From positions 248,001-312,000 of the forward strand of contig JBPGPT010000018.1 of NCBI GenBank assembly GCA_051047955.1: 64,000 bases of DNA, read 5' to 3'. Shown piece after piece: positions 1 through 60,316 of this stretch (its first letter is position 1; each line of letters starts with the position of its first letter). The translations under genes and the position numbers were made by a program. The notes under the pieces are model-generated. The model saw only the letters and a list, made by a program, of their open reading frames with translations. It ran no database searches and was not told the DNA's origin. Source of the DNA: Cystobasidiomycetes sp. EMM_F5. Taxonomy: Eukaryota.

Positions 1-640
1 CAGGTCACCTTCCAGACAGAACTCGGTCAGCTCATCGACCTGATAACAGCTCCAGAAGACCATGTCGACTTGTCCAAATTCTCCCTGCAAAAGTGCGTAA
101 TGCGCCATTCGCAACTAGGCATCATTGACGTTCTTTTTCATGAGCAGACACTCGCTTATCGTTATATACAAGACAGCCTTCTACTCCTTCTATCTCCCCG
201 TTGCGCTCGCCATGCACATGTCTGGTGTGACAGACGAAGCTGCGTTCAAAACGGCGGAGGACTTGTTGGTTCCCATGGGCGAATACTTTCAGATCCAGGA
301 TGATTTCCTGGATTGCTATGCTGACCCAGAGGTACTGGGTAAAATTGGCACAGACATCCTGGACAACAAGTGTAGTTGGGTCATCAACACGGCTCTGGCA
401 AACGTTACACCGGAACAGAGGGCCATTCTCGACGAAAACTACGGTCGTAAAGACGCGCAGGCCGAACAGCGATGTAAGCAAGTCTTCCAGCAAGTCGGCA
501 TACCGGACAAGTATGCTGTATATGAAGCAGACTTTTATCAGAAGATCAATGCGCAGATTGATGCGGTTGACGAGAGTCACGGTCTGAAGAAGGAGGTGTT
601 GCGGAGCTTCTTGGCAAAGGTGTACAAGCGGTCAAAGTAG
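1..640 (+). CDS. ERG20: Farnesyl pyrophosphate synthase, 3' part (5' end outside the window)
   Basis: Exon 1-92 reads [27 protein letters not shown]. After a GT-AG intron come [11 protein letters not shown], the second Asp-rich motif [12 protein letters not shown] and [14 protein letters not shown], ending KVYKRSK* (TAG 638-640). Confidence 0.96.
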
Positions 641-3501: not shown

Positions 3502-6500
3502 ATGGCGCCAAAGGATAATGAGCGCGACGCTGGGGACGATGAGCCAAACTCGAGCGACGAGGAGGGCATTGATATTATGAACTCGGACGGGGACAGCAGC
3601 GACGAGGAGGAGGACGAGGACTCGGAGGAGGAGCGCAGGATCCGAGAAGGTGGGGCAGAAATGATGATGGAGCTCCAGCAGTCTTGAGCTCAATTACTGC
3701 TTTTGCATTGCAATGCAATTCCAGGATTCATCGCCGACGACGCAGACGACGACGAGCGCGAACGGAGGAGGAAGCGCAAGAAGAAGAAGAGAAAGCACAA
3801 AGAGCGTCAGTGGACGTCGACGACGGGAGACGTATGCTGCAAGCTGATTGATGGCCATGTTCAGGAGAATTCGAGGCATTGTCTGAAGACGATCTAGACC
3901 TGGTCGAGCAGAACACTGGACTACGCATTGACAGGCCTGAAGTGGTACATTGAATGGCAGAAGGAGATCTATTCCCCCACTGACAGTCTCCCATGCGATT
4001 ACAGCGAAAGCTCAAGAAGCTCAAACGGGCCGGAGCTGCTGAAGAGTCTGAGGACGAAGAGGACGCCCGCGAACCAGACCTCAGTAATATCTTTGATGAC
4101 ATACAACGCCGAAACAAGCCGAAAGACAAGCGACGAGCCAGAGACGATGTCGACATTCTCACCAAAGCCAACCGTGCGGCAGACATGGATGACATGGAGG
4201 AGGACGATATGGCAGACTTTATCGAGGAGGATAGTCCTGATGAGGAGGCTGGTGCCGACCGCGAGCAGAGGATACGTCGAAAAGCCAAAGACAAGGAGGC
4301 GGTCAGACGTAAGAAGGTCGCTGGCATCGCTTTTGGTGGTTTGAATATCACTGCAGAGTAGGTCCATACGCGGTACTCTTCTTTGTATGCTGATGAATCT
4401 GTCCTTCAGAGCGTGGGATGAGATACAAGAAGTCTTTGGCGACGGCCACGACTATGACGATGCACTCGAGTCGGATGGCGAAACATCAAAAGCACAACCA
4501 ACGCTCAGAGATGTGTTTGAGCCAGCAGAAATTGCCGAACGTATGATGACAGACGCGGATGATATCATCCGTGCCCTCGACATGCCCGAACGAATGCAGA
4601 TTGCACAGGCTAGCATACAACCAAAACCTACTACACTCGTTGATGGAGAGGTCCAGGAAGCCTCGGATTACCTCTTGGAGCGGGAACAGCTGAAAGAAGC
4701 GGCAGTCTGGGTCTCGTCGCGTATTTCCGACGCCTTGACGGAGAAGTACGTCCGAACCAAGGATGGAGTCTTCTCTCCCTTGTCGGAACCATTCATGAAT
4801 GCCGTCTTCAAGATTCTCGAATTCATCTGCGTCGACTACTTTGAAGTACCTTTTATCTGGGTTCACCGCCGAGACTATTTTATACACCACGACCCACAAG
4901 CCTACAACCCTTCAGATCGCTCTATCGCGCTGCTGACTCGCGAAGACTTGTGGAAAATCTACTCGCTAGCCATCAAGTATCGTGCCATTCTAGACCGCAA
5001 AGCGTCACTCCTGAAGTTATGGGAAAAGGTGCAGACTGAAGATGCATACTTTGACGATCTCTTTGCGAGAGTCGAGAGTCTCGATGAGGTGTCAGATCTC
5101 GTGGATTTCGTGACAATCAAGTACGCAAGACGCATCAAAGAGCTGGCAGAATTGGCGGGCGCAAACGTGATACCGGAAGATGCCGAAGTGGACGCCGTTC
5201 GCAATGGACCAGACGGAGTCAAGCATAAGCGCGCTACGTCAAATTCCCGTTACGAGCGCGCAAAGTCATCTATGGTCTCCAAGTTTGCAGAGGTGCGTAA
5301 CGCTTGAATAGCTATCAAGCAGGACGTGGCCAAGCTGATCCGATCTGCAGCGAGCCGCGTTCCCGGCAGAGGTACTGGCACAACGCTTTGTGACTTTGGA
5401 CAAGTCGCAGATCTTCGAGGATCCACCATCTGGACCGCGAAACTACGCCATAGAATTCGCTGATCCTGCCAGTGCATTTATGGATGCAGAAAGCGTTATA
5501 AACGGCGCACTACTAATACTTACGACGGAACTAGCAAAAGAGCCGACTCTGCGCAAAGAGATTCGTCATGCGTTTCGTGACTTTGGCATAATCAGCGTGC
5601 GACCCACCGACCTGGGCGCTACAAAGATTGACGAAATGCACCCTTACTATGCTTTCAAGTATCTACTGGATAAGCCTGTCGAGATGTTCCGAAACTCGCC
5701 CCAGTTCTTGCAGATCTTGGCGGCAGAGACAGAGGGTCTCGTCTCGGTAGATATTCGTATAGGCCGCGAGAAGCTGAATCAGCTCACAATTTCCATTTAC
5801 GATGTCTACTTGGATTCTACGTACACCTCGGACGATGCTAAAGAATGGAATCACTTCCGAGAACGTGTCATTGTCGATACGCTTACACATCACCTTCTTC
5901 CACTCGGTACCCGTTATATCCGTGACTGGCTACGAGATACGGAGGAGGACTTCATTGCCAATCGATGCGCGTCCAAGTTGGAAGAGGTGCGTAGATTTTC
6001 AGAGTCCGCACGATATCGACTAATTCTGTTATGTAGCGAGCGGATATGGCACCTTTCCGACCAAAATGGAAAACGAAGGGCGATGTCCCGAGAGTGCTCG
6101 CCATCTCTCACGGGCAAGGTGATATCAAAAAGGACTTTGTATACGCTGTGTGCTTAAACAATAAGGGCCGGCTGATAGACCACGAACGCTATGCCGACAT
6201 TCGTAATGCCGATACCAAGGAAGCTCTTGCTGCGCATATCGAGCGCCTCAAGCCCGATGTCATCGTTATAGGAGGCTTTACGCCGGCCACACATCGCCTT
6301 CGGGAGGACGTGAAGATTTGCACCAGTAACATCGAAAGTAAGCGTCGAGAGGCGATAGAGCAGGACCAATCACTCGACTCGACAGCAAAGATGAACGCTC
6401 GCGACAAGGCCGTCATTGACATCATCTATGTGCACGACGAAGTGGCACGCTTATATCAACATAGTCGCCGGGCCAATGACGAGTACGGTAATCTTACGAA

Positions 6501-8657
6501 TATTGCACGTTACTGCGTCGGTCTCGCTCGTTTTGCACAAAATCCTGTCTGCGAGTACGCATCGCTCGGACAGGATCTGGCGAATATCTCCTATGATCCA
6601 CATCAGAAATTGGTAAGCTGGCTGAACTGCGGAAACGAAGCGAATATTGACGAACAAAATGTCATAGGTGCCGAAAGACAAGCTTATGTCATACTTGGAG
6701 GTTGCCCTCGTGAACGTCGTAAATATCGTAGGCGTCGACATCAACAAGGCAGTGCGGGACCCATACTACCGTCTGCTTCTTCCGTATGTTTCCGGACTGG
6801 GTCCACGAAAAGCGGATGGTATGGTCAAGCGTATCAATGCAATCTGCGGAGGCACTCTTTCTTGTCGGGCTGATCTTGTTAAGCGCGAGATATGCACGTC
6901 ACGAATCTTCATGGACTGCGTCGCTTTCTTGCGCATAGCATCGGAAGCAGAGGAGGAAGAGGATGATTACGACATTCTGGACTGTACCCGCATACATGCC
7001 GAGGACTATCATATTGCTCGGAAAATGGCTGCAGATGCTGAAGATATGGATGAGGAAGACATCGAGGATCTCTCACATCCTTCCGGGGCGGTAGTGCAAT
7101 TGATGGAGAACGGTGCTGGCAAACTGGACGAACTCAGTCTCGATGATTTCGCTTCTGCGCTTTTCAACACGCAACATCTGCAAAAGCGTCTCACGCTTTA
7201 CATGATTCGCGACGAACTGCAGCGTCCATACAGCGAAAGACGGGCGGAATTCTCGCAACCTGCCGAGCAGGAAATATTCACGATGTTGACAGGCGAGACA
7301 CGACAGACTCTAGACTTGGGCCTCATCGTTCCTGTCGTCATCGTGCGGGTGCTGCCCAATGGCGGCATCCTATGCCGATTAGACTCCGGTATAACAGGCA
7401 TGGTCAATCAAGGCTATTACGAGGGCGACACTCAGTACCAGCCAGGTCAGACGGTCCAAGGCCAGGTCATTGCTATGAGTTTGGCCAATCTCAGCGTCGA
7501 GTTGTCATTACTGCAGCAAAGTGTGGCTACCGACGATTCCGACCGAAGAAAGGTACAGCCAGACCGCTTTTACGATCACGTACAGCTTAGCATGGACAAG
7601 CAAGCTGTCGAAGCCAAACATAAGCGTGCGCAAGGACGTCAACGAAGGGTAGTTAATCATCCGAACTTCCAGAATTTCAGCGCCGGATCAGCCGAGCAGT
7701 ACCTTGCCAACATGCAGCGTGGAGATTGTGTTGTACGTCCGTCCTCGCGAGGGTTCGATCATCTGGCAATTACGTGGAAGGTCGACGACGGCATATATCA
7801 GCACATCGGTAAGTCTTGGGTTTTTGCTTGACGTGTCGAACTTGCCTAACACTCGCATCAGATGTCCTCGAGCTCGATAAGCCGAATGAGATGTCGCTAG
7901 GTCGACAATTACGTATACAAAACAAATACACCTACGCAGACTTGGATGAATTAATCGTATCACATGTCCGCGGTATGGCCCGCAAGGTCGACGAGATGCT
8001 GCATTCAGAAAAATACAAAGGTTCAGAAGAGAATCTACGTGAGTCACGGTCAAATCCGAACGTCGTGTATGCTGACTCGCTCTGCGCAGGCAAATGGTTG
8101 AGTACATCCATTATGGCGGAACCGAACAAGAGTTTCTACGGGTTCGCCCTAGACAGGCGTAGGCCTGGCAATTTCCTGATTGGATTCCTGACGAAAGGCT
8201 ATGAAATACAAACTTGGGTAAGGGTGTAGAATTTCTTAATTGTCCAGTGCCATACTGACCATATCTGTTCAACAGAATGTCACCGTCGAGCCAGGTGCAT
8301 TCGTATTACAGGGCAACGCGGATCCGGCGCCGACAGTGACACTGCTCTGCAACGCTTTCAAGTCAACTTATCTCACGTTGCGGTTCCAGCAACCCGGAGC
8401 ATCTGCTAGCCATACCAACAGACCGCAGCAGCCAAGTCGGACGCCGATGCATTGTAAGGTCGTTGTTGCGGACAATCGGCTCTAGCTAACGATATATGAC
8501 TGCAGATCCACCTCAGGGCAACATGACACCGTACGGTGCTGGTGCTCGCAGCCCGTTCCCAGCCGGCAGGCCTCCAATACCAATGCCTATGCATATGCCG
8601 CCACCACCCGTCACTGGGGCCTACATCCATCCGTCACGTCAAGCAGCATACCGCTGA
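3502..8657 (+). CDS. SPT6: Transcription elongation factor / histone chaperone Spt6, multi-exon
   Basis: Acidic N-terminus with GFIADD, then DVFEPAEI..DMPERMQI and FEVPFIWVHRRDY. YqgF/HhH region VGVDIN..LPYVSGLGPRKA, an S1 domain, and SH2 region RVVNHPNF..VRPSSRGFDHLAITWKVDDGIYQH. Pro-rich last exon ends at TGA 8655-8657. Confidence 0.96.
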
Positions 8658-55067: not shown

Positions 55068-57567
55068 ATGACTTCGCCGTCGAGGAGTATTGGCATTCCC
55101 AACATCCCGCCCAGAGGTGGACGGGAGAGCGCAGCTGGGAGCGCTGCAGCCTCGCCGTCTCAGTCTCAATCGCAGTCTCGGGGGCTGCTCACACCGCATC
55201 CATCGCAGTCGCAGCTGCATCTATCGACGTCGTATGGCAGGACAACGCCCGGCGACGAGTCTTTGAACGACAATCTGACTGACGAGCAGCGAGCAAGAAT
55301 TGTCGCAAGACATTTGGTGGACCGTCAAGGCCAGTCGAGGGTCAGAAGGGCGTCGAGAGGGCAGCAGGCTCAAGGACTGGCTGGAGAGACCAACGACGTC
55401 AAGAAAAGACTGCGAAAAGTGTTTGGAAACAGCAAAACTGCCGAAGAAGGCGTATTGGACGACGACGAGCATGGACTGGGCGAGGCAGACGCGGACAACG
55501 ACGAGGACGATGGCACACATAGCCCAAGCAAACTGCCGCAGGATCCCGACGAATTCCCCGTTCGTGCAGCTCCGTATTCGGCAGGCTTCACAATTTCGCA
55601 CACTGACTGCCCGCTCTACAGATGCCATTCGGTCTGCAAGGAGGAGACACGACACACGGAGTGTACGCTTGGCAGCGGAAAGCTATAGCCGCAAACTCGC
55701 CTGCTCTACGAAAAAGATCTAAATCAGTCGGCGAACTGAGCAGTCTCAGCGGTATCAATAACGCTCGCGATGCCGATGGAAGTATGCTGGAAGAGGGACC
55801 TAGTGCCGGAGGTGATGACGACGTCGACCCGAATGTCACAGACGTCAAGAAGATGCTGGAGCCTGGCGGATTCAGGAGGAATTACATTGCTCGACAAGCC
55901 GCCCAGCAGGATGATGCCGGCTCATCCGTTGGCAGTCCAAGAGGTGCCAACGGCTATAGCAATGGCAAGATGCAAAGACCACGTCCGACTCGCGCAACAA
56001 GTAGTTTTGTCGAATTCCTATCACTCTACGGCCATTACGCTGGTGAGGAGCTAGAGGAGATTGAAGAGGGTGACGAGGAGGAGGAGGAGGAAGCTTTGGA
56101 AGCGGCTGAAAGAGCTATACCTCGCGGTGCCGCACGTGTACCTCGAGATGTGGACGAGCGGACTCCGTTGGTCAAGAGAAACGATACACGAGCGCGCATA
56201 GCACGTAAGCGAGTCAGCCAAGAGGGCAAGCAGGGCGAAGCCACAGTCACTCAAGCAGTGCTCATGCTGCTAAAATCGTTTGTTGGTACTGGCATCCTTT
56301 TCCTCGGACGAGCCTTCTTCAATGGAGGCATGCTCTTCTCCATCATCGTTCTTCTCTCTATCGCCATGATCTCCCTATACTCCTTCCTCTTGCTCGTTCA
56401 GACCCGCCTTGTTGTCCCAACAAGCTTTGGTGACATTGGTGGAGTTCTGTATGGTCCATACATGCGCTATGCTATTCTTACAAGTATCACATTGTCCCAA
56501 GTCGGCTTTGTGTCTGCTTATACTATCTTTGTGGTGAGCACAATCTTTTGTGCGCACAGACGGAGAGATAACCTTGATGAGATTTTTTTGCCCAGGCGCA
56601 AAACATGCAGGCATTCATTATGGCAGTAACAGACTGCAGGACATACATCCCTATTGCCATTCTGATCTTTGCACAAATTCTATTCTATCTCCCTCTAGCC
56701 ATGTTTCGCAACATTCACAAACTGTCAGGTACTGCTCTCATTGCGGATGGTTTCATCCTTATCGGCATCGTCTATATTGCCTACCTTGAAATTGGTCACC
56801 TCAACGAGTATGGACTCGGCGACGTTGTGCTTCTTAACAAAGCCAAATTCCCGCTGCTTATCGGCACGGCAGTATTCTCCTTTGAAGGTGTTGGATTAGT
56901 CATACCCATTACGGAAGCAATGAAGGAGCCCGAAAAGTTCCCGAAAGTCTTGTCTGGCGTCATGGTTGGCGTCGCGTCGCTCTTTGCGGCCGCAGGAGCG
57001 CTCGGATATGCAACATTCGGATCGGATATCCAGACTGTTGTCCTTACGAATCTGCCGCAGGACGATCGGTTGGTCAACGCTGTCCAATTCCTCTACTCTA
57101 TAGCCATTATGCTCTCTACGCCTCTCCAGCTATTTCCCGCAGTTCGCATTATGGAACAAGGCATCTTTTCGCGATCGGGAAAATACTCTAACCGCATCAA
57201 GTGGCAGAAGAATGCATTCAGGTCGCTCACTGTCCTTGGATGCACATTGATCTCTTGGGCTGGAGCGAGAGATCTCGACAAATTTGTGGCGCTTATCGGA
57301 AGTACCGCATGTGTGCCACTCTGCTTCTGCTACCCTGCCCTTCTGCACTACAAAGCCTGTGCCAAGAATCGAAGGGAGAAGCTGCTGGATATCATCCTTG
57401 TCACCTTCGGGGTGTTGATGGCTATTTATACCAGCATACAAACGGTAAGCAATCTTTCGAGACTCGGGTCACAACTGCTGACTTGGCCGTTCTCTCGCCA
57501 GATTGACATGTTTGCACACTCGAAGAGTGATCCTCCAAAGTTGGGCAAGTGCCCAGTGCCAGAATGA
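55068..57567 (+). CDS. AVT3: Vacuolar amino acid transporter (AAAP/Aa_trans family, Avt3/Avt4 type), multi-exon
   Basis: LQGGDTT, PGGFRRNYI, FVEFLSLYGHYAGEEL, dileucine-like ERTPLV, MLLKSFVGTGILFL..FFNGG, IGTAVFSFEGVGLVIPI, STPLQLFPAVRI and SGKYSNRIKWQKN. Confidence 0.9.
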
Positions 57568-57788: not shown

Positions 57789-60032
57789 TCAGCACAATAA
57801 TGCGAATTTACTAATCATCAGTCCTCGTTTAGTCTGCTTTTCGTCTGCGTTGGTGTCGCCGGACTGCACTTGGCTTGCAGTAACTGACAGGTCGACGATC
57901 CTTACGAACGCGCTACCGTCTTCCATCTCTGCGATATGCCATGGCTCCCAACACCATACCTCTCTTCCCTCTTTCATCTGAGAATGGAGATCAACGATAC
58001 TGGCGGGAACGAATAGAGTCTTGAACCCTTGCTGTTCATCCTCCTTCCTCTTCATCGCCGCCATCGTCTCGAATGGAATCTTGGCTTGCACTCCATACTT
58101 TATACCGTCCGCTGCAGCTTGTTCTGCCTGCTGTGCGCGAAGCAGAGATGCCGAATGATTGCCTCCGACAATCACTTCGTGATCACCCTCTCGTGAAGTC
58201 ATGTTCCGCCCTTCGATAGCCGCAATACCTTCTTGCCTGTAGACTGAGCTAGATGGTTGAGCTGATCGTGACGACGACGTCGCATGTGGTAGTGAAGGCA
58301 CGACTGTTCCTTCCTGCTTGACCGCCGCTTCCCCTCCCCGAAATGCAGAAGCTGTAGAGAGCGAAGATCGGGGATGCGTGGTTAATGAAAACAGAACAAT
58401 CCCCTCGGTATAGGATTCCTCGTGTCCGCTTGAGACTGGATTGACGAAACCCTTTCCCATTTCTTCGGCATCCTCTTCTTCGTCTGCGTCATGCAGGATT
58501 CGACAGGTTGTACACATGAGCTTTTCTCCAACGCCTCCGGTAATGAACCCTCCGCCTGATGGCCTGTCTGTTCTGATACCACCCTGTCCTGCGGGCCCAA
58601 AATCATTGTTGATGTCCAGACGCGCCAAGCTGGGAGGTAAGGAAGAATGTATTTCGACGATTTGAAGCCTAAGTCCGGGATTGAGATCGGTCTTGAGCTG
58701 AGCGAGCGTTCTTTTAGCAGTGGAGAGAGAGCGAGAGTGACCATGTCGTGATGTAAGAGATGGTTTGCTAGGCGAAGAAGAGGAGTCGCTCCGCTCTTCC
58801 AGCATTACATCCTTGACTTCCTCCTTCTTTACTCTGTTGAGCCTCGAGGCTGAGGGTCCACTAAGCAAGCGTTGTGTCTCGTGCAACCACAGGCTCTGGC
58901 TAGTCTGATTCCGCTTGATGACGTTTGCAGCTCGTTCAGCTAGACCCGCCTTAACCCACCCTCTTCGCTTCTTGCGAGGTGACAGAAGTTCAGCAATATC
59001 CTGCTCTACGGTGTTTACGCTCGCGAATGGTGATTCGGAGGAATTGGGATTGGATCTGAAGAGTTCGGGTATGAATGGCTTCAAGTCGCCCGTCTCCCGC
59101 TTGTTGGGAGAGGTAGAGGGACCGCCTAGAATGGAAGAGAGACGATGAAGCGGCTTTGATGATGACGTCTTCTGGCGTGCTGCAGTTTGTGGGTCACTTT
59201 GATCAGCATGTGGGCGCCTGGAATCCGTGCCGGGCGTTTTGGTAGCACTTTGCAGCAGACCGAAACCGCTCGCGATGGAGGGGATTGCTGCTGTCGGTTT
59301 TCTGAGGGTGGACATTTGGCGGGTGGATTGAGCCTTTCGCGGCGTTATTGTGCGAGCATCGTCATCTGAGCTGGATTCAGACTCTGCAACAAGGTCCTCC
59401 TCTCCGGCTTGATCGTCATCCACAGACATGACATGGTCACCGTGGCTATCATCCTGATCCGAGACTTCAATATCTGTTGCTTGAGCTCTACCTGCGCGAC
59501 TCGATGTAGTAGTAGACTCGGTGTACGCGGTCGTTCGTAATCTCTTTGCAGGATGAGAGGAGTCGTTGCCTCGCCGTACAAGCGGGCTCGATAGGGTAAA
59601 CGAGTTCTGGAATGACGTAGAATGGGTCTTGGATGCAGATGGAGGAGGTCTGTGCGCGACGGGGGATGAGTGTGTTGTGGTACCTGCAAGGCCATGCCGT
59701 CAGTCTCTGAAGCGTCGGATTCATATTTCTTTCGGCACTTCTCCACCTTTGTTGATGTTGGCGCTTGAGACTTTGTTCGACCGACCACCGCCAACCCTGC
59801 TGGCACCAGGCTGCTTTGCCAGTCCAAAGCTTTCGTGGAATGCATTGATGGCATCGTCTACACGACGTGGACGGGCAGCATTTACCTGCTGTGCGCGTAG
59901 AATGGCAGCACTTTCGTAACTTCTTCCCGGATTGCGGTATGAAGATGCTTCTTTTTGGAGGGGATCAGTCTGGGCGTCAGTGTCAGCTCCATCGTCTCCA
60001 ACTACGACAATATCCTCGTCTCGATGGTCCAT
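57789..60032 (-). CDS. Hypothetical protein (2 exons), Ser-rich N-terminus, possible SPIDR/DUF4502-like C-terminal region
   Basis: ORF 57789-59429 stays open upstream to a CTGAC..TTGCAG acceptor at ~59684. This joins in frame to the exon beginning MDHRDED (ATG 60032). Confidence 0.75.
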
Positions 60033-60316
60033 GCTCTCAAAACAATGTCGTGCTAAAAGACATCCTTCGTCGCCGCTTCGTGCCGGGCGCCGTTGAACGG
60101 GGCAGCACAGGGACATCGAGGCTGACACTCTTTTGGCCGGACAGCGACTGAATACCAATACTACGCTCGTTTTCACAGCATATCCTGACTCGCAGCGTCT
60201 CTGGCGTCCTGCTCCGATTTGAACAGCCTCGATACGGTCACTATTGCGGATTTTGGATCAATATCTGGTCATTTGTATATCCTGGTTATATTCTCAATAA
60301 CGCCCGCATCGTCGAC

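Follow-up and report, generated by a model that had tools for sequence, protein, structure and literature searches.

Does the 64,000-nucleotide stretch of contig JBPGPT010000018.1 from Cystobasidiomycetes sp. EMM_F5 (positions 248,001 to 312,000; the whole stretch is called the window here) encode a fungal counterpart of SPIDR, a protein of animal homologous recombination? An earlier note on this DNA had proposed a SPIDR-like recombination scaffold at 57789..58983, on the strength of six short peptide blocks read as resembling blocks of vertebrate SPIDR. In the available text of the relevant papers, SPIDR partners SWS1-SWSAP1 in recombination (PMC8275761, PMC10164582, PMC11339404), and it works in human and mouse recombination, with its loss linked to ovarian insufficiency (PMC8275761, PMC10164582, PMC11377751); the last three sources, in the parts available, treat SPIDR as an animal protein. 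Our analysis confirms the observation made in the earlier note and supports its interpretation in part. The protein is classed here as a truncated variant of the central module of SPIDR and not as SPIDR itself, because the DUF4503 part of SPIDR was not found in it and the Pfam cut-off for DUF4502 was not reached. The support for this assignment consists of converging but individually sub-threshold evidence.

All six peptide blocks are present in the stated order in the open frame 57789..59699, between 57804 and 58982 (Table 1), as located by script. The interval originally proposed holds only the conserved C-terminal ~400 residues, and in the 5' direction the gene reaches 59699 or beyond. When 1.84 billion representatives were searched exhaustively with phmmer, 21 proteins were returned at E<=1e-3, the window's own among them (14 at E<=1e-10 and 5 at E<=1e-30), the closest named relative being P0053 from Cyphobasidiales (E 4e-39, 30% identity). 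This relationship suggests a Pucciniomycotina yeast close to the Cystobasidiomycetes as the source of the window. Every member with a name is a basidiomycete: Cystobasidium minutum, a Cyphobasidiales metagenome-assembled genome, Sporobolomyces johnsonii, Rhodotorula babjevae and R. araucariae, Rhodosporidiobolus odoratus and R. nylandii, a Microbotryomycetes species and Coniophora puteana. With the Coniophora protein as the query, 24 more Boletales proteins were recovered (E 1.6e-35 to 3.5e-19), giving a family of ~45 basidiomycete proteins with the conserved blocks. The window subfamily (alignment A4) and the Boletales subfamily (alignment A3) are only ~25% identical to each other, and hhalign aligns their profiles over 169 columns, starting at the SPRKK stretch and reaching the C-terminus, with a probability of 98.6% and an E value of 1.2e-15. 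Word-indexed searches, which are poorly suited to a protein of such low complexity, yielded one relative for the window protein and, with the profile of the 21-sequence alignment (A1), only the window's own protein from 7,999 candidates. The conserved columns of A1 are exactly the six blocks; C399, P565 and P586 are invariant, and conservation is at least 90% at P341, G433, V435, F437, S438, L439, D570, L571, W582, W584, L627 and F632. Every named member is labeled 'hypothetical' or 'uncharacterized' in the databases, and one carries an automatic DUF4502 match. Judged by these sequence comparisons, the gene and its protein family are genuine.

That the frame is spurious, or belongs to a pseudogene in decay, would be compatible with the large low-complexity parts of the protein and with the fact that no RNA run is listed for the stretch. 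Such a reading is very hard to credit given a frame of 636 codons, conservation of its six blocks in Cystobasidiomycetes, Microbotryomycetes and Boletales alike, invariant Cys and Pro and near-invariant Trp residues, and a core that is modeled with confidence.

The link to SPIDR comes from Pfam. In all sequence comparison, the vertebrate SPIDR blocks were represented by the Pfam profile of DUF4502 (PF14950), SPIDR's N-terminal family, which has a length of 376 positions and a curated gathering cut-off of 27 bits and was scanned as part of a library of 24,736 families. DUF4502 was the sole Pfam family to recur in the fungal proteins. Two of the 21 first-round members matched it (P0004, E 0.003, profile positions 258-291; P0021, E 0.001, 257-311), as did 20 of the 24 Boletales proteins (E 2.2e-5 to 0.15, positions 257-324, with P0035 matching 260-374 of 376). 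Among three fragments of the window protein, one matched (a 69-aa piece, 58800-59006, E 0.017, 15 bits, positions 260-294), and DUF4502 was the only family that it matched; its matching part is the long helix LAERAANVIKRNQTSQSLWLHETQRLLS. Matches were also obtained for two of 12 helix fragments from subfamily members (E 0.062 and 0.1, same register). All 25 matches occur in one register, profile 257-324, with P0035 extending to 374 and the window itself confined to 260-294. The best match is that of P0029, a Boletales protein from Hygrophoropsis (24.5 bits, E 2.2e-5), which also carries a precomputed PF14950.12 match from a newer release. By hand count, the P0035 match runs from the helix to just past the W.PW block, through strand 4 of the barrel described below, which agrees with the co-linear block order that had been proposed. 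DUF4503 (PF14951) gave no match in any scan (E<=10; E<=1 for the 24 Boletales proteins), no match in any scanned protein covered DUF4502 positions 1-256, and the fungal protein terminates at strand 5 of its single barrel, a result that fits the earlier description of a truncated protein with a single oligonucleotide/oligosaccharide-binding (OB) fold.

A separate, structure-based look-up also listed SPIDR. In the ESM Atlas, a search with P0029 returned in row 3 the 'DNA repair-scaffolding protein' cluster of chordates, in which PF14950 is present in 100% and PF14951 in 98%, and the alignment lay within DUF4502. An arthropod cluster with PF14950 on 10% of its members was also returned, both clusters being below the tool's bar. 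The C-terminal part of the window protein retrieved unnamed fungal clusters only. Weak feature or structure neighbours of P0029 in the same search, also below the bar, included an unnamed cluster of 168 members from Ascomycota (451 aa) and unnamed ones from Streptophyta (205-490 aa), a hint that the module may not be confined to basidiomycetes and animals.

The further proposal of a helix and an OB-like fold behind a long disordered N-terminus is supported by AlphaFold2 models and by fold searches. Models were obtained for window residues 225-636 (21-sequence alignment, mean predicted local distance difference test score (pLDDT) 60.7) and for P0029 (42-sequence alignment, mean pLDDT 69.8). In both, secondary structure assigned by DSSP follows the OB order b1-b2-b3-helix-b4-b5 with a long helix ahead, P0029 having the same elements as the window model (helix 29-56; strands 119-126, 170-177 and 208-214; helix 344-350; strands 356-368 and 400-411). 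When averaged over 10-residue blocks, pLDDT in the window model was 87-94 in strands 1, 2, 4 and 5, ~80 in strand 3 and 81-88 in the middle of the long helix (blocks 31-50), with lower values at both helix ends; the helix and barrel blocks of P0029 scored 75-97, mostly 87-97. The loops between strands of the window model are long low-confidence inserts. The insert listed in Table 1, between strand 3 and the OB helix, has mostly low pLDDT over model residues 222-332, climbing toward the OB helix; it is shorter in relatives and gapped in A1, and no in-frame intron candidate was found within it by script.

Both models were compared with 48,161 PDB representative chains using VIA-align, OB domains being called from the titles of the top 50 rows of each search. 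Nearly all matches were OB domains (SSB, RPA70, PriB, TPP1, CST, Teb1, MCM10, the BRCA2 OB and RADX, together with tRNA-synthetase N-domains such as that of AsnRS and the PAN N-domain). For the window model the best Z score was 6.0 (root-mean-square deviation 2.6, 58 aligned residues) and 24 chains reached Z>=5; for P0029 the best was 6.7 (root-mean-square deviation 2.7, 80 aligned residues), with 76 chains at Z>=5. The weak top rows of a Foldseek search with P0029 were likewise OB domains, e.g., the N-terminal OB of Rfa1/RPA70, with a probability of up to 0.99 and an E value of 0.02. These predictions provide support of modest strength for a single five-stranded OB-type barrel after a ~28-residue helix.

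Several results weigh against homology to SPIDR. The 27-bit cut-off for DUF4502 was reached by no scanned family protein or fragment, and the whole window protein had no Pfam match at E<=10. DUF4502 was not matched by the two longer window fragments, by 10 of the 12 helix fragments, by 19 of the 21 first-round members, by 4 of the 24 Boletales proteins or by any of four further full-length relatives. Most of the matches that were obtained span ~50 residues (the helix plus strand 1), and the matching sequences are related, not independent. The rows of the Atlas search had template modeling scores of 0.30/0.12 (0.30 by query), below the tool's bar. Neither model matched any of the 48,161 chains at a VIA-align Z>=8, and neither had a Foldseek match in the PDB at E<=0.001. 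The fold-search scores obtained for the models reflect a common fold class and not kinship with SPIDR; the searches are silent on such kinship because sequence searches of the PDB turned up no SPIDR-like chain: the A1 profile gave just a 12-bit chance match to YGR203W (E 0.7), the A3 profile gave none and the whole window protein had no match. Finally, domains of recombination factors were absent from the 27 window frames scanned (the 26 frames other than that of the gene that have 180 codons or more, and the 178-codon frame 59721-60257 upstream of the gene). The original pointer to DUF4502 is supported by the recurrence of a sole Pfam family in one register. A match at the level of the curated cut-off was not obtained, the best relative scoring 24.5 bits and the window fragment 15 bits.

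An unrelated, lineage-specific fungal OB protein would share these features. In that case the likeness to DUF4502 would be due to chance or to a convergent amphipathic helix (GLAERA...T..LW) and would have no bearing on SPIDR or on recombination, in keeping with Pfam matches that are short and below the cut-off, with the silence of the whole window protein in Pfam, and with middling scores for a fold that is very common. We nevertheless consider this explanation unlikely. DUF4502 alone of 24,736 families recurs, and does so in a constant register in two subfamilies that have diverged to ~25% identity; the best single-sequence E value is 2.2e-5, and one match stays co-linear as far as position 374 of the 376 in the profile, strand 4 included. 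The structure-based Atlas look-up, which is separate from the profile scans, lists the chordate SPIDR cluster with DUF4502 aligned. In addition, a disordered N-terminus followed by an OB domain agrees with the published description of SPIDR (available text of PMC11377751). Taking both sides together, we judge it likely that the family is genuinely, if remotely, homologous to the last third of DUF4502.

The explanation that we favor, and consider reasonably probable, is that the gene encodes a distant and truncated homologue of the SPIDR central module that acts as a recombination scaffold by analogy with human SPIDR. As described in the available text of PMC11377751, human SPIDR begins with a disordered N-terminus, has a globular 'inferred OB' at its center and ends in three RPA1-like OB folds (623-915) that bind single-stranded DNA (ssDNA). 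On this explanation, a real, expressed-looking basidiomycete gene gives rise to a protein of ~636-726 aa in which a long disordered N-terminus with a few conserved short motifs is followed by a basic patch, the ~28-residue helix and a single OB with floppy loop inserts. The helix-OB module would be remotely homologous to the last third of DUF4502, which in turn probably corresponds to the central 'inferred OB' domain of animal SPIDR, and the three C-terminal RPA-like OB folds of SPIDR (DUF4503) are absent from the fungal protein. By analogy, the module may dock on ssDNA or on a complex of Sws1 and Rad51 paralogues (Shu-type), and short motifs in the disordered N-terminus may recruit further partners. 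What the data show is the gene, its family, the class of fold and a DUF4502 match below threshold, whereas the equation with the central domain of SPIDR and all that is said of function are inferences. The role of recombination scaffold is proposed because the fungal module is read as the human SPIDR central domain, and residues 1-515 of human SPIDR interact with SWS1-SWSAP1 in a three-hybrid assay, the same region binding RAD51 (available text of PMC6821187).

A true homologue of the SPIDR central module could also operate outside a Shu-type complex. It might be a stand-alone OB that binds ssDNA or partners in another pathway, such as replication stress or telomere maintenance, or it might serve a RecQ helicase or a FIGNL1-type ATPase as an adaptor. 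The top fold matches include ssDNA-binding OB domains (SSB, RPA70 DBD-A and PriB) along with protein-binding ones (TPP1 and the RPA70N/Rfa1 N-terminal OB of the Foldseek search), and human SPIDR also binds BLM, RAD51 and FIGNL1 (PMC6821187 and PMC11377751, in the parts available). No result favors any one of these partners, however, and the only mapped partner region that covers the homologous part, residues 1-515, binds SWS1-SWSAP1 and RAD51 (PMC6821187, same text), so that we judge a role of this kind improbable. A more ambitious form of the favored explanation, in which the truncated SPIDR central module serves as a Shu-type scaffold, can be offered tentatively and with some doubt: the helix-OB module would be an ancient SPIDR core predating the animal-fungal split, basidiomycetes would keep it as a stand-alone scaffold that constitutes the missing third subunit of a Shu-type (Sws1/Rad51-paralogue) complex, ascomycetes and plants might keep the module as well, as the weak Atlas neighbours suggest, and animals would have added the three RPA-like OB folds later. 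Such a protein would make it possible to study a human gene of infertility and genome stability in a tractable fungus.

Table 1. Features of the SPIDR-like gene and its product. Positions are those of the window; residues are those of the main open frame.
Feature	Positions	Residues	Strand	Basis or remarks
Probable exon 1	59747..60032		-	ATG 60032 (MDHRDEDIVVV...); carries conserved N-terminal motif; scripted gene model and BLASTP
N-terminal short motif RRVDDAINAFHESFG	59823..59867		-	In putative exon 1; coordinates derived by hand from exon-1 numbering
Probable intron	59684..59746		-	63 nt, GT..AG; joins exon 1 to main frame in phase; from sequence only
Main open frame (P0001)	57789..59699		-	636 codons, stop 57789-57791; stop-to-stop frame; probably exon 2 from 59683 downward
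Ser/Thr/Pro/Ala-rich, poorly conserved region	58983..59683	~6-239	-	Composition; A1 mostly gaps
Block SPRKKRRGWVKAGLAERAANVIKRNQTSQSLWLHE	58878-58982	240-274	-	Script
Long helix LAERAANVIKRNQTSQSLWLHETQRLLS	58860..58943	253-280	-	Model helix 29-56; basic SPRKKRRGW stretch precedes
Block LRLQIVEIH	58647-58673	343-351	-	Script
OB strand 1 (LRLQIVEI)	58650..58673		-	Model; block conserved in A1 and in subfamily comparison
Block LMCTTCRIL	58494-58520	394-402	-	Script
OB strand 2 (LMCTTCRI)	58497..58520		-	Model; holds invariant Cys399
Block GIVLFS	58386-58403	433-438	-	Script
OB strand 3 (EGIVLFS)	58386..58406		-	Model and alignment
Low-complexity, low-confidence insert, strand 3 to OB helix	57999..58385	439-567	-	Block pLDDT 35-54
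Short helix (IVDLHSQ) between strands 3 and 4	57978..57998		-	Canonical OB helix position; model
Block EGREVWCWEPWH	57936-57971	577-588	-	Script
OB strand 4 (EVWCWEPWHIAEM)	57924..57962		-	W582 and W584 at least 90% conserved, P586 invariant
Block GLMISKF	57804-57824	626-632	-	Script
OB strand 5 (KRGLMISKFALL)	57795..57830		-	C-terminus of the protein; model and alignment

The gene probably extends 5' beyond the main frame to the ATG at 60032 via the putative 63-nt intron (Table 1). A scripted splice of exon 1 (286 nt from the ATG) to exon 2 gives a product of 726 aa, and the exon-1 translation is similar by BLASTP to the 737-aa Cystobasidium minutum homologue P0051 (E 0.006) and to the 535-aa Cyphobasidiales protein P0053 (E 0.069). 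The database gene call for this locus (P0002, 546 aa) begins at an internal Met, residue 91 of the open frame (59429 downward), and is probably too short at its 5' end, because the Cystobasidium homologue is 737 aa long and has the upstream motif too. Counterparts of that motif, RRVDDAINAFHESFG, occur near the N-terminus in Cystobasidium (KLNDALKDFQNNFG) and Cyphobasidiales (RGVDAALKAFEASFG), and it may be a partner-binding short motif. It also resembles an N-terminal block of the Boletales proteins (..PESIxKFVSAFD). A reading of the motif as an FxxA-type RAD51-binding site was dropped, as only the Boletales version (FVSA) fits the pattern.

The region between exon 1 and the conserved blocks is rich in S (17%), T (11%), A (8.5%) and P (8%) over 58983..59683 and is taken to be disordered; residues 225-239 alone of this region were modeled, with pLDDT <50 in 225-231 and from 239. 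Short conserved motifs are found in its part closest to the helix (~58983-59300 on the reverse strand, residues ~135-239) and are common to the closest relatives in A1, two such pairs being KPLHRLSSILGG versus KPLKSLG.ISGL and LKPFIPELF versus (I/V)KPKWAQLLE. The Boletales relatives (P0021 and P0027-P0050; A3) carry ~50 additional residues immediately ahead of the SPDK/helix block, a strongly conserved stretch (MKTILTT.VAQATDPTKEG.GAELLSLFLQQHGH.FTSSTDRELQRGV) that forms two short helices in the P0029 model; the window subfamily keeps only (D/E)I.ELLSPRKK.

The neighbouring gene, at 55607-57567 on the forward strand, is that of an amino-acid transporter of the Aa_trans family (PF01490), matched in two frames with E 7e-23 and 1.4e-65. 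It is convergent with the SPIDR-like gene, from whose 3' end ~220 bp separate it; since the match is split over two frames, the transporter gene has at least one intron or frame change. Elsewhere in the window, an SPT6 gene lies at 4345-7831 on the forward strand across four overlapping frames (HTH_44, Tex central, YqgF, HHH_7, S1 and SH2 domains), a split that fits an intron-containing fungal nuclear gene, and other long frames carry adaptin, RasGEF, UCH, SET, GST and FAD oxidase domains.

Phrase searches of the literature returned no paper on a SPIDR homologue, orthologue or 'SPIDR-like' protein, and none that describes such a protein from a fungus, with the proviso that the conservation of SPIDR is the subject of Supplementary Figure S1E of PMC10164582, which may be relevant to its known taxonomic range. 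Searches combining SPIDR with fungi, Arabidopsis or orthologs retrieved no non-animal SPIDR in titles or abstracts, 'DUF4502' occurred in one clinical paper only, and Sws1 combined with Basidiomycota retrieved mitochondrial genome papers only. If the homology is true, a conserved fungal protein made of the helix and OB only would mark the central module as the evolutionary core of SPIDR and the ssDNA-binding triple OB as a later addition. Yeast-like basidiomycetes could then be used to ask what role the central domain plays. For a human gene of recombination and fertility, the fungal protein is a plausible way into the domain that is understood least.

How does the protein compare with known systems? 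Fungal Shu complexes consist of Csm2-Psy3-Shu1-Shu2 in S. cerevisiae and Sws1-Rlp1-Rdl1 in S. pombe (cf. PMC11876325 and PMC11339404, available text). This is the pathway where a fungal SPIDR-like scaffold would be expected; the known fungal subunits differ from it in being Rad51 paralogues and a SWIM-domain protein. To our knowledge, no known fungal Shu subunit is a helix-plus-OB protein. The architecture of a disordered N-terminus plus OB is common to HROB/MCM8IP, SHLD2 and SPATA22 (named in the available text of PMC11377751), and the OB fold class to protein-binding domains of the RPA70N/TPP1 type, but the Pfam families of all these proteins gave no match at E<=10 in our scans, and the fold scores do not set OB domains of the HROB, SHLD2, SPATA22, RPA70N or TPP1 type apart from any other OB. 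Animal SPIDR (KIAA0146; DUF4502 plus DUF4503) differs from the fungal protein in continuing past one OB into three RPA1-like OB folds and a zinc ribbon (human 623-915; PMC11377751, same text), and the fungal family lacks a DUF4503 match, a match to the first ~250 DUF4502 positions and any match at or above the Pfam cut-off. What the two have in common is a long disordered N-terminus followed by a helix and an OB-type barrel, together with sub-threshold, register-consistent matches to DUF4502 positions ~257-376.

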